Shown: positions 1 to 8,914 of the stretch, piece by piece
How positions within the stretch are numbered: position 1 is the stretch's first letter
How the letters are laid out: each line of letters starts with the position of its first letter
NCBI GenBank assembly: GCA_043788625.1
Contig: JAYVTR010000281.1
Location: 1-11,201, forward strand
Length of the DNA: 11,201 bases
DNA from: Planctomycetota bacterium
Lineage (GTDB): Bacteria > Planctomycetota > UBA11346
Direction of reading: 5' to 3'
The notes under the pieces: model-generated
The model's input: the letters and a program-made list of their open reading frames with translations, nothing else
Told to the model about the DNA's origin: nothing
Databases searched by the model: none
Made by a program: the position numbers and the translations under genes

Positions 1-504
1 ACCTGAACCATTACGTGCCAAATACGCGCCACACTCTATATTAGTTGACCCTGGACCCGCTGAAAAAAATCGAAGTTTTCTTGATAACCAAGCGGCCAAC
101 CTATTACGATAACCCGATAGAGCCCGAGCATCGATTACTGAAGGGCGAGCAATAGTGGTAACAAATTCTTCCACAGTATATTTTTGCCAAGCTGCAAATC
201 CCTCTATTGTATCAGATTTAATAAATCCCGTCGTTACCGATGATAACTTTGAAGAAATATCATCAAGCAATTGACACTGAAAATTTAGGTCTCCATTGCT
301 ACTCTGATAAAAACCGTCTTGTGGATAATCACTGGCGGGAATATTCCCCGCGGCTGAAGGCCAAGACCAAACAGAACCATTTGAAAATTCGTAGTACATT
401 TGTTGAGAGCCACGTTGTAGTCCCTCAATACCCAGATCTTCTGCTAATAGTTCAGAACCTAAAAGTGAGAGCAGTAAAAGAAAAATTAAGTTTTGCATGC
501 GCAT
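1..504 (-). CDS. Hypothetical secreted protein, N-terminal fragment. The ORF runs off the left edge of the window, so the C-terminus is not present. The likely start is MRMQNLIFLLLLSLLGSELLA (ATG at complement 504-502), or alternatively the ATG at complement 498-496.
   Basis: I reverse-complemented 1-504 by hand and found an open frame of 168 codons with no stop. It begins with a classic signal peptide: a positively charged n-region, a Leu-rich h-region and an A-E-D region. Upstream in frame there is a stop at complement 522-520. GC is about 41% against about 65% for the rest of the window. The product is not recognisable from sequence. The six-frame track omits this ORF because it is truncated at the edge. 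Confidence 0.5.
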   Translation of the reverse strand, partial: MRMQNLIFLLLLSLLGSELLAEDLGIEGLQRGSQQMYYEFSNGSVWSWPSAAGNIPASDYPQDGFYQSSNGDLNFQCQLLDDISSKLSSVTTGFIKSDTIEGFAAWQKYTVEEFVTTIARPSVIDARALSGYRNRLAAWLSRKLRFFSAGPGSTNIECGAYLARNGSG

Positions 505-917
505 TATATTATGTCTTTTTCAATATTTTTTTACGCACTTAGTCACATATTGTGAAATGCGGTAATGGGTTGATGGAGAAATTTACGATGTATTTGGTAA
601 CTGTCAATGCGATACGTCGGGAGTAGCTATTAAAAAAATAGGCTCATTCCCAGTCAAAATAGGAGGGGATTTTAGTTCTGAACGAAACCAGAAAAAATTG
701 AGATGACCACAAAGTATAAATTAAATATTTAATTTACTAGGCCTCGCACGACCTGATTCATGTTAAAAGCTCAAATTTATTGAGCATAATACATAATCAT
801 TGGGTTACTCCTACCAAAATAATGGACTGTCCACAAGGTCAAAAAAACATTATTGACGTTCATTTAATATAGCATCCCGTTCCACCTCACATACCCTCCC
901 CCGCCACGAGGTACCCG
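505..917. other. Very AT-rich non-coding segment, roughly 25-30% GC on sampled blocks. It marks the boundary between the low-GC segment and the high-GC core and presumably carries promoters for both flanking genes.
   Basis: This is the lowest-GC part of the window and has no ORF of 60 aa or more. A TTGACG hexamer sits at 853-858, with A/T-rich sequence (taatat, tatagc) downstream. A TATAAT or CATAAT -10-like hexamer lies 1-5 nt upstream of the minus-strand start codons at 504/498. Confidence 0.4.
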
Positions 918-2528
918 ATGGCCGTCATGCTTTTCTTCACCATGCTCGCAGTTGCCGCTTTGGCCGCCGCATGGATGGCGAATATTCCACGTTTGGCACG
1001 AGTGGCCTTGGTGGTGATGTCACCGGCTCTCTTAATTTTAGGCATGATCCTTGGCTCGTCCGTGGTGGTGCCCGCAGATCAGACCGGCGTCATCAATCGT
1101 TTATTCGGCTCGCCGCTGCCTTCTGGCGATATTGTCGCACGGCATGGTGAACAGGGTCCGCAGGCCGAGATCATCGGGCCGGGTTGGCATTTCGGGTATT
1201 TTCCTTTTCTGTATGAGATCGAACTGGCGCCGGTGGTGGTGATCGCACCCGGCAGCCTGGGCTTTGTCACCGCCCGCGATGGCAAGCCGCTGGGCGATAA
1301 TGAAACCTATGCGCCGGCTTGGGACAGTACCGCTGACATGCTCGACCCAGCGACCTTCCTCGCCAAGGGCGGCCATCGCGGACCGCAAACCACGGTGCTG
1401 ACACCCGGCACCTACCGCTACAATCCACGTCTGCATGAAATCAAAATGATCGAGGCGCTAAATGTGGCACCCGGCACCGTAGCCGTGATCAAGAGCAACA
1501 GCGGCTTGCTTGCTGAAAAAGCCAACGACACGGTACTGGTCAACGGCACGCCGTTAGTGGCCAATGGCAATCGCGGCATCTGGCGCACACCGTTGTCGCC
1601 CGGTGCCTATTACCTCAACAGCCAGGCTTTTCAGCCGACCCTGGTGAAGACGACGCAGAGAGTCTATGTCTATCAGCAGGGTGCGGTGCGCCAGCCAACG
1701 CAAAAGGCTGCGACCGGTGCTCAGGACTGGTCGGTGGTGGTGCGCAGCAAAGACGGCTTCAGTTTCCCGGTGGATGTGCGGGTGGGTTGCGCCGTCGAAT
1801 CGAAGGACGCGCCGTACCTGGTCGCCCTGCTCGGCGATCCCGACCAGATGGTGCGCGATGATCAGGAAGACGAACAGCTTGAGGTCCTCGAAGCCAAGGT
1901 CATCTTGCCAGCAGTGCGGGCGATTTTCCGCAATGTCGCCGAGACCATGAACGCCCTCGAGTTCGTCAATGCCCGCTCGACCATCGAAAAACAGGCAAGC
2001 CAACGGATGACCGAAGAGCTGGCCAAATTCCATGTCACCTGCGATGGTGTGTATGTCGGCAACATCCACCTCGATGTCAGCGAGGCCGGCAAGAAGCTGA
2101 TCTTGACCCAGACCGATCGTGAAGTCGCAGTCAATCAGCAGACTCTTTACAATGAACAGCGTAAAGCTGAAGAATCGCGCGCGGCATTAGTGAAAGCCGG
2201 CGAAGAAGCGGAGCAGCAACGCAACCTGGCGAAAGCCACCTATGAAGTGCTGGTCAAGGAGCAGGGCGCCAAAGCCCGTGGTGCCGAGGCCAAGGGCGAA
2301 GCCGAATACCAGACCATCACCGGCGAAGGTCGCGCCAAGGGCTATGATGCCATGGTGCGCGCCCTCGGCCGTGAGCAGGTGGCGCAATTGGAATTGCTCA
2401 AGCTCGTCGCCGAAGGCAAAGTGCAGATCACCCCGCAAGTCATGGTCACCGGCGGCGGCAATGGCTCGATGGATGCCCTCGCCGGAACTCTGCTTCGGCA
2501 ATCAGTCAGCCCAGGAACCAAGCCATGA
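918..2528 (+). CDS. Flotillin-like SPFH/band-7 family membrane protein (YqiK/FloT-like), 536 aa
   Basis: Two N-terminal hydrophobic segments are followed by an SPFH-like core (GVINRLFG...IIGPGWHFGYFPF...). The C-terminus has the Ala/Glu-rich coiled-coil typical of flotillins (EESRAALVKAGEEAEQQRNLAKATYEVLVKEQGAKARGAEAKGEAEY...). A GAGG Shine-Dalgarno at 908-911 sits 6 nt upstream of the ATG at 918. Confidence 0.85.
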   Translation: MAVMLFFTMLAVAALAAAWMANIPRLARVALVVMSPALLILGMILGSSVVVPADQTGVINRLFGSPLPSGDIVARHGEQGPQAEIIGPGWHFGYFPFLYEIELAPVVVIAPGSLGFVTARDGKPLGDNETYAPAWDSTADMLDPATFLAKGGHRGPQTTVLTPGTYRYNPRLHEIKMIEALNVAPGTVAVIKSNSGLLAEKANDTVLVNGTPLVANGNRGIWRTPLSPGAYYLNSQAFQPTLVKTTQRVYVYQQGAVRQPTQKAATGAQDWSVVVRSKDGFSFPVDVRVGCAVESKDAPYLVALLGDPDQMVRDDQEDEQLEVLEAKVILPAVRAIFRNVAETMNALEFVNARSTIEKQASQRMTEELAKFHVTCDGVYVGNIHLDVSEAGKKLILTQTDREVAVNQQTLYNEQRKAEESRAALVKAGEEAEQQRNLAKATYEVLVKEQGAKARGAEAKGEAEYQTITGEGRAKGYDAMVRALGREQVAQLELLKLVAEGKVQITPQVMVTGGGNGSMDALAGTLLRQSVSPGTKP

Positions 2529-2614
2529 AGCTGCTTTTGTTTATCACTCTGATCGTGGTGCTGGTGTGCCTTGGCGTGATCATCGGTGCTGTATTAGCTG
2601 GCCGCGGACGTTGA
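2525..2614 (+). CDS. Candidate 29-aa single-pass membrane micro-protein (MKLLLFITLIVVLVCLGVIIGAVLAGRGR). It is translationally coupled to the flotillin gene.
   Basis: The ATG at 2525 overlaps the flotillin TGA stop at 2526-2528 (ATGA). An AGGAA Shine-Dalgarno at 2513-2517 sits 7 nt upstream. The product is one hydrophobic helix with a C-terminal RGR tail. The track omits it because it is shorter than 60 aa. Confidence 0.4.
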   Translation: MKLLLFITLIVVLVCLGVIIGAVLAGRGR

Positions 2615-2618
2615 GGAT

Positions 2619-2737
2619 CTGAGCTTGAAGCTTGAAGCTTGAAGCTTGAAGCTTGAAGCTGGTGGCTGCGAGCTGCGAGCTGCGAGCTGCGAGCTGCGAG
2701 CTGCGAGCAACCAGCCACCAGTCACCAGTCACCAGTC
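2619..2737. repeat. Phase-continuous array of 17 heptanucleotide tandem units: CTGAGCT, (TGAAGCT)x5, GGTGGCT, (GCGAGCT)x5, GCGAGCA, ACCAGCC, (ACCAGTC)x3
   Basis: Read directly from the sequence. Every unit boundary falls on the same 7-nt phase from 2619 to 2737. The array fills the convergent intergenic space between the small-ORF stop (2612-2614) and the ygaP-like stop (2758-2760). Confidence 0.95.
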
Positions 2738-2757: not shown

Positions 2758-3282
2758 TCAGCGGTTCCACGGCATTTTGGCGATGAGCATGCCCATCATG
2801 CACGAATCCGTCAGCCCGGCGATGGTCAACCCGGTCCCGACCCCGCCTGACAAAGCGAACCAGTACGGATGCACGACGTAGCCAAGGCCAACGCCGATCA
2901 CCACCAACGTTCCAGCGGCGATGCGCACCTGCCGCTCAAGTGACATGATCGCCGCGCCGCGCACCACCGGCAGTCCGGCGGCTACCCATGCATCTGTTCC
3001 GCCCGTCACTATCACACTTGGACAACCGCAGTCAGCCAACTTGCTGGCCGCCATCGCAGCTCGGCCACCCGACTTGCACAGCAAATGAATGGTGCTGCCG
3101 GCCGGAGTACTCGCCGCCACCGACGCCGGATCAAAAACATCCAGCGGCATCAATACCGCACCGTCGGCATGCAGCGCCCGATATTCAGCTGGCGTCCGCA
3201 CATCGATCAGCCAGGCATCGCCGGCACTCTGCTGCGCCTGCGCTTCAGCAGCTGAACAGGTCGTGGGGGTGGTCATGGTCAT
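2758..3282 (-). CDS. ygaP: Membrane-anchored rhodanese-domain sulfurtransferase (YgaP family), 174 aa
   Basis: The N-terminal part is a rhodanese domain with the active-site loop LLCKSGGRAAMA. The C-terminal two-helix membrane anchor ends ...GYVVHPYWFALSGGVGTGLTIAGLTDSCMMGMLIAKMPWNR. This closely parallels E. coli YgaP (...LGYTV...[30 protein letters not shown]), and the length is the same. An AGGAG Shine-Dalgarno (complement of 3289-3293) sits 6 nt upstream. Confidence 0.88.
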   Translation of the reverse strand: MTMTTPTTCSAAEAQAQQSAGDAWLIDVRTPAEYRALHADGAVLMPLDVFDPASVAASTPAGSTIHLLCKSGGRAAMAASKLADCGCPSVIVTGGTDAWVAAGLPVVRGAAIMSLERQVRIAAGTLVVIGVGLGYVVHPYWFALSGGVGTGLTIAGLTDSCMMGMLIAKMPWNR

Positions 3283-6038: not shown

Positions 6039-8914
6039 ATACTCAATCAGCAGCGGTCGCTGATTATTTTCAATCCCTGGCGAAAACCACCTTCAGTGGT
6101 GACGTCACTGCCAGTGAAGCCGCCCGCTTTGCCGTGGCCACCGACAATAGCATCTATCAGGTGCTGCCGGCTGGTGTCGTGCATCCGCGCTCGACCGCTG
6201 ATGTCGCCGCCCTGCTGCGCACCGCCCGTGCCCATCCGACGATCCGTCTGTGTTCGCGCGGTGGTGGCACCAGCACCAATGGCCAGTGCCTGACCCACGG
6301 GCTGGTCATCGATCACAGCCGTCATCACGATGCACTGCTGAACCTCGATGTCGCCGCCCGGTTGGTGACGGTGGCGCCGGGGATGGTGCTGGACACCTTG
6401 AACCGCCATGTGCTTGGACATGGACTGCAAGTCGCGCCGACACTGTCGACGTCTTCACGCGCCACCATCGGCGGCATGGTCAGCACCGACGCCGCCGGCA
6501 AGGGCTCGCGCGTTTATGGAAAAACCTCGGAGCACATTGAGGCTTTGGAAGTGGTCTTGGCCGATGGCACGGTGTGGACCTCACGGGCCATGAACGCTGC
6601 TGAATTCGCCTGGGAGAGCGAGCGATCCGACAGCGTCGGACAGCTTTTACGCGACGTCATGGCGGTCGTCGACGCCAATCGCGCGGCGGTGGCCGAACGT
6701 TTTCCGCGTCTGCGGCGCTTTCTCGCCGGCTATAATCTGGCACGGGTGCGTCAGGATGACGGCCGCATCAATTTCAATTGGCTGTTGGCCGGCGCCGAGG
6801 GCACCCTGGCGGTGATCACTGCTATCACCTTGCGCCTGATTCCCATCCCCGCCGCCAAACGCCTGGTGGTGCTGCGCTATGCGACCTTTGCCGCGGCATT
6901 GGCCGAAGCACAAACCTTGATCACCCGCCAACCGCAGGCGATCGAGACCATCGATGAACTGGTCGTCAACCTGGCCAGCCAGTCGCCCCTGTGGGCGCGC
7001 GTCGGACACCTGTTGCCCGCTGGCAGCGGCCCGTTGAACCTGGTGCAGTTCGTCGGTGATGACGCTGCACAGCTGGCGGTGGTGGCGGCGGACCTGGGTG
7101 GCGTGCAGTTGACTGCCAGCAGTGACATCGCCGCCTGTTGGGATCTGCGCAAAGCCGGCGTCGGCTTGCTTGGCAAGCTGCCCGGTGCGCGCAAGCCGGT
7201 GCCGTTCATCGAGGACACCGTGGTGCCACCCGAACACCTCGCCGCCTACGTCGTTGAGCTGCGTGCTCTGCTCGACAGCCATGGTTTGCGTTATGGCATG
7301 TTCGGCCACGTCGATGTCGGTTGTCTGCATGTGCGCCCGGCCCTCGATCTGACTGATCCGCATGATGTCGCCAAGATCCGTCCGCTCAGCGATGCGGTGG
7401 CAGCGCTGACGCTCAAATACGGCGGTTTATTGTGGGGCGAACACGGCAAAGGTTTTCGTGGTGAATATCTGCCGTTGTTTGTCGGCGATACCCTGCACCA
7501 CGCTTTCCGGCAGATCAAAAGCGCTTTCGACCGCGGAAACCAGCTGAATCCTGGCAAGCTGGTCGCCCCCTGCGGTTGCGATGAACACCCGCCGGCACTT
7601 GACGCGGTGCCGCTACGCGGACAGGCCGACGCACAGATTTCGCTAGCCATGCGTACGGCTTGGGCTTCAGCGGTAAGCTGCAATGGCAATGGAGCCTGCC
7701 ATGCACCTGATCCACACGTGGTGATGTGCCCGTCGAGCAAGATCACCAAGGATCGCATCCATACGCCAAAGGGTCGTGCTGATCTGGTACGCGAGTGGCT
7801 GCGGCGCCTGCAACTTGCCGGCGATTCGGCGCTGATGGTACCGGCGGGCGTGGGTTGGCGGTCACCGCATAACGATGACGCTTTTACCCATGAGGTGAAA
7901 GCGGCTCTTGATGGCTGCCTGGCGTGCAAGGCGTGCAGCGGCACCTGTCCAGTGCAGGTCGATGTACCGGATTTGAAGGCGCGCTTTCTCGCCCATTACC
8001 ATGGCCGTTACGCCCGACCGCTGCGTGATTGGGCGATGGCGGCACTCGAGACCCTCGCCCCGCTGGCGGCACGCCTGCCGCGGCTGGCCAATGCCCTGCC
8101 GACACCGCGAGGCCTGGTGGATCTACCGCGCTTCAGTTCGCCGCCACTGTGGCAACGGCGGCCACCCGGCCTGGCATCACTGGCCGAGGCGCACGTGGTG
8201 CTGGTGCCGGATGTATTTACCGCCTGCTTTGATGCTGACAGCGTCACGGCCGCAATCACCTTGCTGGCTGCGTTGGGCTGGCGCGTGCACCTGGCGCCAC
8301 TGGTCGCCAACGGCAAGCCGCTGCACGTGCTGGGCATGCTGCATGGCTGGCGGCGCACCGCCACGGCGTGGCGCGCGCACCTCGAGCGCTTGGCTGCCAG
8401 CGGCAAACCGTTGCTGGCCCTGGAACCGGCAGTGGCCTTGACCGAGCGCGATGAACTACGCAAGGCGGGGTTGGCCGATGCACCACATCTGCAGCTGATG
8501 AGCGAGTTCCTCGCCGCACGCTTTGCCCAGCAACGCGTGCCGCGGGCCCTACCGCCGAGCCCTAAACGCAACGTCCACCTCTTGGCCCACTGCACCGAAC
8601 AAGCCACCGCACCGGCGGCGGCGCAGGCGTGGGTGGCGGTCTTCAGAGCCTGCGGCCATCACTTGACCGTGGTCCCCAGCGGCTGCTGCGGCATGGCCGG
8701 GGCATGGGGGCATTGCGTCGAAAACGTCGCTGCATCGCGGGCGCTGTTCGACTTATCATGGCGACCCCGTCTGGAGCAGGCCGATGCCATTGGCGCGCTC
8801 GTGGTGGCCGATGGTTTTTCATGCCGCCATCAGGCCGCCCGGGTTGCCGGCCGGCAATTGTTGGATCCGGCAGCGACGCTGTTGGCACTTGGCTTCGCCG
8901 ATGGCGGACATTGA
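6035..8914 (+). CDS. FAD-linked oxidase (GlcD/PCMH-type FAD-binding domain) fused to 4Fe-4S ferredoxin-type and cysteine-rich CCG domains. This is the YdiJ/GlpC-like architecture of a putative D-2-hydroxyacid dehydrogenase, about 959 aa.
   Basis: There is an N-terminal FAD-binding block (...RLCSRGGGTSTNGQ...ATIGGMVSTDAAG...), a mid-protein CLACKACSGTCP (CxxCxxCxxxCP) cluster motif plus a second degenerate Cys cluster (SCNGNGACHAP...MCPSS), and C-terminal CCG-like segments (TACFDADSV..., ...SGCCGMAGAWG). I chose the start at ATG 6035 because it overlaps the AraC TGA stop (6036-6038) as ATGA. The track's GTG at 6011 lies inside the AraC coding sequence and has no Shine-Dalgarno. Confidence 0.85.
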   Translation: MNTQSAAVADYFQSLAKTTFSGDVTASEAARFAVATDNSIYQVLPAGVVHPRSTADVAALLRTARAHPTIRLCSRGGGTSTNGQCLTHGLVIDHSRHHDALLNLDVAARLVTVAPGMVLDTLNRHVLGHGLQVAPTLSTSSRATIGGMVSTDAAGKGSRVYGKTSEHIEALEVVLADGTVWTSRAMNAAEFAWESERSDSVGQLLRDVMAVVDANRAAVAERFPRLRRFLAGYNLARVRQDDGRINFNWLLAGAEGTLAVITAITLRLIPIPAAKRLVVLRYATFAAALAEAQTLITRQPQAIETIDELVVNLASQSPLWARVGHLLPAGSGPLNLVQFVGDDAAQLAVVAADLGGVQLTASSDIAACWDLRKAGVGLLGKLPGARKPVPFIEDTVVPPEHLAAYVVELRALLDSHGLRYGMFGHVDVGCLHVRPALDLTDPHDVAKIRPLSDAVAALTLKYGGLLWGEHGKGFRGEYLPLFVGDTLHHAFRQIKSAFDRGNQLNPGKLVAPCGCDEHPPALDAVPLRGQADAQISLAMRTAWASAVSCNGNGACHAPDPHVVMCPSSKITKDRIHTPKGRADLVREWLRRLQLAGDSALMVPAGVGWRSPHNDDAFTHEVKAALDGCLACKACSGTCPVQVDVPDLKARFLAHYHGRYARPLRDWAMAALETLAPLAARLPRLANALPTPRGLVDLPRFSSPPLWQRRPPGLASLAEAHVVLVPDVFTACFDADSVTAAITLLAALGWRVHLAPLVANGKPLHVLGMLHGWRRTATAWRAHLERLAASGKPLLALEPAVALTERDELRKAGLADAPHLQLMSEFLAARFAQQRVPRALPPSPKRNVHLLAHCTEQATAPAAAQAWVAVFRACGHHLTVVPSGCCGMAGAWGHCVENVAASRALFDLSWRPRLEQADAIGALVVADGFSCRHQAARVAGRQLLDPAATLLALGFADGGH

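Follow-up and report, generated by a model that had tools for sequence, protein, structure and literature searches.

What produces seventeen heptanucleotides in one unbroken phase in the short space between two convergent bacterial genes, and does such an array serve either of them? The window in which it occurs is one entire NCBI MAG contig of 11,201 bp. Its host is an uncultured PVC-group bacterium whose nearest MAGs are labelled Planctomycetota. The closest relatives in the genome collection are Lake Mendota MAGs of that label, with 93% identity in the SPFH protein encoded beside the array (best tblastn segment, for L390 and for L389, the same contig as L014). The labels conflict, in that MAGs at 89-93% SPFH identity (L389, L390, L418) are assigned to Planctomycetota or Planctomycetales and homologues at 60-73% mostly to Verrucomicrobiota or Opitutaceae. 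The window's own MAG is absent from the GTDB species representatives. At one end of the contig, window 1-800 has a GC content of 0.34-0.42 against ~0.61 in the rest and may be foreign DNA; an ORF of 168 amino acids on the minus strand there (1-504) runs off the contig end and is without a Pfam match.

The array is best explained as a non-coding compound heptanucleotide simple-sequence repeat, or 'long SSR', that was likely made by slippage between the two genes. Such repeats are a known class rather than a new type of element, and this copy is compound. Replication slippage would gain or lose whole 7-nt units and thereby keep a single register, and point mutations would yield variant units that, once amplified locally, leave blocks joined by intermediates. 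The AGCT-type blocks 1 and 2 would then be lineage-specific expansions.

Structure of the array and its flanking genes

Upstream of the array lies a plus-strand gene of the SPFH/Band-7 type (flotillin/YqiK-like; 918..2528; Pfam PF01145, E 2e-12) with 358 homologues at E <= 1e-30. It is followed on the same strand by a small ORF (2525..2614) for a hydrophobic peptide of 29 amino acids (MKLLLFITLIVVLVCLGVIIGAVLAGRGR), whose ATG overlaps the SPFH stop codon (ATGA) and whose own stop lies 5 nt before the array. That the small ORF is real is argued by its being called as a gene in an independent contig (L003) and by orthologous ORFs of 28-32 amino acids with synonymous changes in the relatives examined (L004-L017 and L390). 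It is coupled translationally to the SPFH gene, by an ATGA or GTGA overlap, in all relatives. The window peptide ends in GRGR, three residues earlier than those of L008, L009 and L013 (GRGRGDR), and by eye, with no formal alignment, the TGA at 2620-2622 in the first heptad may match their stop codon. From the other side, the minus-strand gene of a YgaP-like rhodanese membrane protein (2758..3282; PF00581, E 1.5e-10; PF11127) converges on the array, its stop 20 nt away.

The two stop codons are separated by 143 nt, 119 of which are array. Its position between them makes it non-coding, as suits a unit length indivisible by three. No Pfam family or gene call extends across it, exact-protein look-ups gave no gene product on record for the two ORFs that cross it, and the curated covariance models of Rfam had no match in the whole window at their gathering scores.

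Read out in 7-nt steps, the array comprises 17 heptads in a single register over 119 bp (2619-2737). A degenerate first unit, CTGAGCT (2619..2625), precedes block 1, (TGAAGCT)5 (2626..2660). The junction unit GGTGGCT (2661..2667) leads to block 2, (GCGAGCT)5 with the variant GCGAGCA (2668..2709), and a further junction unit, ACCAGCC, to block 3, (ACCAGTC)3, the two together forming a stretch of CCAG-core heptads (2710..2737). After it come AAGTCACCTTTTCAATAAAA and TCA, the stop codon of the gene on the minus strand. In the CTGG register the same array reads CTTGAAG x5, CTGGTGG, CTGCGAG x6, CAACCAG, CCACCAG and TCACCAG x2. By Tandem Repeats Finder (TRF), 5.6 perfect copies of period 7 lie at 2622-2660 and 6.3 at 2665-2708, covering blocks 1 and 2, and a third run, of 4.1 copies with 95% match, lies at 2710-2738. 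With period 7 and matches of 91-100%, the array consists of head-to-tail units within the 1-11 nt that define a bacterial long SSR. Its period-7 self-match is 89/100, whereas the rest of the window averages 26.7 (sd 6.9) and peaks at 40, so its length is beyond chance for the sequence context; by the same measure, the remaining 11.2 kb hold no other heptad array.

The seventeen units in one phase described by the first-pass annotation are thus confirmed by read-out, TRF and self-match alike. Its further account needs some correction. The AAGCTT palindromes of block 1, whose unit TGAAGCT is nearly self-complementary, number four (2628, 2635, 2642 and 2649) and not five, and the remark that three units make 21 bp, or two helical turns, is unsupported. 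Three unit types are indeed present, but they are not three separate families, being joined by GGTGGCT, GCGAGCA and ACCAGCC. These junction units look like mutational intermediates, and arrays in metagenomes (L469) and in the nearest relative (the 17- and 37-unit arrays of L389) are likewise mixed in register. Both observations fit slippage with block-wise spread of mutated units, and the suggestion that one ancestral array diversified block by block has accordingly held up.

Could the array, or its copy numbers, have arisen when two contigs were joined through low-complexity sequence? All three same-organism Logan short-read contigs end at or within it: L003 ends at 2651 in block 1, L001 begins at 2679 in block 2, and L002 has a boundary at 2750. 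The junction of blocks 1 and 2 (2652-2678) is present in a single assembly only. Assemblies with k=31 are expected to break at tandem repeats. On the other hand, the contigs enter the array from both sides with 0 mismatches, reach 4.3 or more units into blocks 1 and 2, and span all of block 3; the order of SPFH gene, small ORF and convergent ygaP is kept in five related lineages, one relative (L008) having a related array at the same position. Given the mismatch-free independent contigs and the conserved gene order, the array and its join are real and an artefact is exceedingly improbable. The exact unit numbers rest on one assembly, since the Logan contigs stop inside blocks 1 and 2. In practical terms, the array breaks short-read assemblies and could act as a strain marker.

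The spacer in relatives and heptad arrays elsewhere

In relatives compared at about 90% protein identity the array is absent or different. L014-L017 and L390 have 4 nt without any repeat between the same two stop codons (TAA-AGAC-TCA or TAA-ACAA-TCA), and L004-L007 (91% SPFH identity) have a non-repeat spacer of ~60 nt that has a weak hairpin but is not called as a terminator. In L009-L013 the neighbouring genes differ. L008 (92%) carries six units, three of them degenerate, that run into the ygaP stop: (GTCGCCA)3 GCGGTCA GTCGTCA ACCGTCA. Its unit, (G)CCAGTC, as in (GCCAGTC)3, is one base from that of block 3. The array is thus lineage-specific rather than conserved. It is probably dispensable, a 4-nt gap between these stop codons being enough for relatives, and near-neutral. 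Block 3, the CCAG-type part, is probably the oldest, given that L008 has a short array of related units in the corresponding place; among the close relatives sampled, only the window has blocks 1 and 2. For the locus itself, such a dispensable and fast-evolving array would be of little importance. Variable copy number (VNTR behaviour) is plausible in view of the differences among relatives and the assembly breaks. It is also likely by analogy, since Xanthomonas heptads vary between close species (PMC4692102), and the heptamers of the Coxiella IVS vary between strains (PMC4990558).

The L008 spacer has features of its own. The 3' ends of both convergent genes form a perfect 9-bp inverted repeat around the short array (ATCGCTGAC at 7705-7713 and GTCAGCGAT at 7753-7761), and its units resemble duplications of the ygaP stop-codon region (TCAGCGA). 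The same contig also has CGTTCGG arrays; at 1081-1198, (CGTTCGG)4.3 is followed at once by three tandem copies of a 24-bp repeat (TTTGGTTTCAGGGCTTTGCCCTGC), both in the spacer that separates divergent genes for an HrpB-like helicase and a DAHP synthase.

The first-pass annotation had held that mixed in-phase arrays of this kind are no standard element type. Heptanucleotide repeats are, however, known and abundant, and their abundance in metagenome, viral and PVC scans makes mixed in-phase arrays ordinary. Around the SPFH homologues of 37 PVC genomes (612 kb in all), TRF gave 33 rows of period 7, the commonest period that is not a multiple of three; periods 6, 8, 10, 11 and 13 gave 11, 7, 13, 22 and 7 rows, respectively, in the same sample. 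A metagenome scan for CCAG[YSR] x3 plus CCAG returned at least 120 matches at all GC contents, many of them compound, as in L469 where (CCAGCCA)9 passes into (CCAGTCA)n. Viral contigs likewise yielded at least 120 matches to (AGCTNNN)4AGCT, with 109, 70 and 75 for the control cores TCGA, TGCA and GATC. The nearest relative, L389, has two mixed in-register arrays, (CTGGTNN)17 at 15570-15690 and (GACCAGN)37 at 16229-16486. CCAG/CTGG-core arrays thus occur at three loci in three close relatives (the window, L008 and L389), as sampled in ~94 kb. A preference for convergent regions is not seen: arrays in those relatives that have gene calls lie in divergent (L008 1081-1110; L013 4854-4870), tandem (L014 11570-11690) and convergent spacers.

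The AGCT-core viral arrays (L018-L137) mostly have mixed spacers, only 29 of the 132 unique arrays among the matches listed having a single spacer. The mixed share is therefore 78% among the matches listed, against 33-46% for TCGA, TGCA and GATC, with 54-67% pure arrays for these control cores (L138-L388). The mixed AGCT spacers are not accounted for by T-run or A-run flanks. One viral array, L034 10483-10528 (IMGVR_UViG_3300044966_000120), reads (GCGAGCT)2 (GGTAGCT)5 GGTGGCT and so has two exact unit types in common with the window, in a contig that is otherwise unrelated and has a GC content of 0.53.

Several known systems offer a frame for the array. As PMC4679880 and PMC4692102 relate in the parts that summarise Mrazek 2007, heptanucleotides are the most abundant class of bacterial long SSRs, large high-GC genomes favour the class, and its proposed cause is polymerase slippage. 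With the 5-11-nt repeats described in those parts, the window array shares 7-nt tandem units, an intergenic site, a host with a large, high-GC genome, fast change among relatives and the proposed slippage origin; it differs from them, as there described, in being compound, with three unit types and intermediates, and in lying between convergent stops. The cyanobacterial STRR repeats and the Xanthomonas GGGAATC and Nostoc GGGGAYT heptads (PMC4692102) are similarly intergenic and near a stop codon; they too form paired inverted arrays and vary in length and sequence among close relatives, and they recur at several loci within a lineage, as the CCAG/CTGG unit type may do in this one. The window array, by contrast, belongs to a PVC bacterium and has AGCT and CCAG cores, its recurrence being sampled in ~94 kb. 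It is also not G-rich and so, unlike those repeats, has no G-quadruplex potential. The TAACTGA repeats of marine Beggiatoaceae and some Cyanobacteria and Bacteroidetes, whose origin is unknown, are lineage-typical intergenic heptamers that are often mixed (PMC4679880). They mostly lie just upstream of start codons and have been proposed as sites of translational regulators (PMC4679880), whereas the window array is 3' of both genes. With the phase-variable SSRs of contingency loci it has in common that it is a slippage-prone tandem repeat. It lies, however, downstream of both neighbouring stop codons, outside any promoter, 5' UTR or reading frame, so that changes in its unit number cannot bring about the usual on-off switching of a gene.

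Hairpin potential and the terminator question

Two parts of the array fold well as RNA. Block 1 forms a hairpin of -22.9 kcal/mol on the plus strand (z -5.3) and -16.8 kcal/mol on the minus strand (z -7.4), in keeping with an earlier suggestion that it folds into hairpins, and for the segment 2655-2725 either strand gives -38.2 kcal/mol (z about -3). Underlying this second hairpin is an imperfect inverted repeat (2659..2721) with 30-nt arms at 2659-2688 and 2692-2721, 70% complementary around a 3-nt loop. The outer 10 bp of this repeat are perfect, CTGGTGGCTG (2659-2668, spanning the GGTGGCT junction unit) pairing with CAGCCACCAG (2712-2721, from the ACCAGCC unit into block 3), so that block 2 is bracketed. 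Shuffling the order of units yields a perfect 10-bp inverted repeat in 4% of cases, and shuffling bases in 0.9%, which makes it suggestive only. The fold of the whole spacer is insignificant against dinucleotide shuffles (z -1.4 and -1.7), and only the local hairpins stand out.

It is tempting to read these hairpins, which appear on both strands exactly between two stop codons in a spacer without any other terminator- or promoter-like site in a scan, as a structure under selection that ends or blocks transcription in both directions, or stabilises 3' ends, for both convergent units. The scan also bears out the earlier statement that no canonical terminator serves either gene. Like intrinsic terminators, the structures are GC-containing hairpins after stop codons between convergent genes; unlike them, they have stems with regular mismatches, and neither is followed by a U-tract on either strand, the post-stem sequences being GGTGGCTG and TCACCAGT. 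Terminator function is unsupported for lack of that tract. The weak z-scores of the whole spacer argue in the same direction, and so do the relatives with a 4-nt spacer and no hairpin, in which no terminator is needed at this point, and the occurrence of relatives' arrays in divergent and tandem spacers. Among the viral AGCT matches listed, T-rich downstream flanks (15/137) are about matched by A-rich ones (13/137); the idea that phage AGCT arrays are terminators with A-run or T-run flanks was rejected on these counts. A selected role in termination is therefore improbable, and the first-pass proposal that the array may act as a terminator or roadblock finds no support as a required role, given the missing U-tract and the relatives with 4 nt between the same stops. 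Were the array transcribed from either direction, its two stable hairpins might still slow read-through or shield 3' ends as a side effect.

Two properties that pure slippage would not predict nevertheless count against it: the local hairpins far exceed shuffled controls in stability (z -3 to -7), and the perfect 10-bp inverted repeat brackets block 2. A hint of a spreading element also comes from CTGG/CCAG heptads at different loci in close relatives, together with the inverted arms at a PF05635 gene that are described below.

Heptad arms at PF05635/S23p genes

The two arrays of L389 are inverted with respect to each other and flank a gene of 113 amino acids that belongs to PF05635, the family of the 23S-rRNA-IVS (S23p, 'four helix bundle') protein, ~4 kb from the orthologous ygaP; this cassette (15570-16486) corresponds to L014 11570-12486. 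All 546 retrieved loci (4.6 Mb) were searched for such genes, by the L389 protein and then by a small profile, and each of the 5 non-redundant PF05635 genes found lies 0-28 nt from a heptad array. The other four are at L518 4819-5625, L451 1937-2316, L074 3117-4153 and L497 9670-10232. Where a locus includes both flanks of the gene, the arms can be seen to be inverted (L389, L518, L497 and, nested, L074). The gene in L451 adjoins (GGTGGCT)5, a unit identical to the junction unit of the window, and the L518 unit, AGCTGGT, together with it links unit types of the window array.

The association extends to a sample that was not chosen for repeats, consisting of ten diverse matches from a tblastn search of plasmids (L546-L555) and spanning Cyanobacteria, Bacteroidota and Alphaproteobacteria. 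All ten PF05635 genes have short tandem repeats on both sides, and in eight of them these are inverted 7-nt arms. One of the eight is a genuine 23S helix-45 IVS from Azospirillum (L551); several of the ten sit inside operons, namely cas6/cas4, cas10/cmr3, nrdB/nrdA and parA/parB. Inverted heptad arms at PF05635/S23p genes thus occur in rRNA and in ordinary operons of several phyla. Many IVSs have no S23p ORF. The only literature found to connect PF05635 with heptad repeats is the case of the Coxiella IVS, whose terminal inverted repeats are cut by RNase III and which contains strain-variable tandem heptamers (PMC4990558); none was found that makes the connection in general.

Against this background, the CTGG/AGCT character of the left part of the window array, the CCAG character of the right part and the imperfect inverted arms suggest that it could be a hairpin element akin to IVS/S23p cassettes but without a gene ('cargo-less'). 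Under this unlikely but arguable reading, two abutting arms, CTGG/AGCT-type on the left and CCAG-type on the right, would later have been expanded by slippage, having been left after gene loss or propagated gene-less, and the cassettes would be small, selfish, heptad-armed elements that RNase III excises in 23S rRNA. The nearest relative's cassette of (CTGGTNN)17, PF05635 gene and (GACCAGN)37 speaks for it, as do the proximity of all five PF05635 genes to heptad arrays with units such as GGTGGCT and AGCTGGT, the inverted arms in eight of ten plasmid cases and the 30-nt arms of the window with their perfect 10-bp end. The Coxiella IVS, with its tandem heptamers and with inverted arms that pair into an RNA stem, offers a possible parallel (PMC4990558). 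Adjacent heptad arrays are moreover very often inverted copies with loops of at most 100 nt: pairs on viral contigs comprise 154 inverted, 129 direct and 275 unrelated, 87 of the inverted ones having such loops, and 7 of 11 pairs at PVC loci are inverted. Yet the 143-nt spacer holds neither a PF05635 gene nor a remnant of one, and hmmsearch with a PF05635-type profile found no such gene in the window. The array lies outside rRNA without an S23p ORF; its arms are only 70% complementary, shuffling the unit order recreates their 10-bp end in 4% of cases, and blocks 1 and 2 each pair with themselves instead of with a partner arm. For IVS/S23p cassettes no mobility mechanism is known, and more than 98% of the heptad arrays encountered have no PF05635 gene nearby (1272 TRF rows against 5 genes). 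A compound repeat generated by slippage is the likelier account of the locus.

A broader form of the idea, a distinct long shot, is that heptad arrays are the arms of widespread IVS-like selfish cassettes, often cargo-less, whose cargo would be the S23p/PF05635 pentameric four-helix-bundle protein and whose arms would form an RNase III-cleavable stem, the window array being one gene-less copy. If true, the excess of heptanucleotide repeats in bacteria would largely reflect the spread and decay of cassettes. The reason why heptanucleotides predominate among bacterial long SSRs has been open since 2007, and the association of PF05635 with heptads provides a testable lead on the origin of at least some arrays.

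The supposition that inverted array pairs 250-900 nt apart are always PF05635 cassettes was dropped, as phage pairs enclose ordinary phage genes. The arrangement of an array, a loop of ~25-110 nt and a reverse-complement array is frequent (L393 and the viral L121, L055, L028 and L332/L369), and such sets make up long imperfect hairpins that some genomes and phage contigs carry in many of their intergenic regions. L393 alone has five inverted array pairs in 21 kb (6064-6190, 8216-8364, 16114-16253, 17136-17307 and 20473-20650). Some arrays also abut start codons, for instance AAGGCGG arrays, which are Shine-Dalgarno-like, and GAACGCC arrays, which are found on both sides of a divergent spacer.
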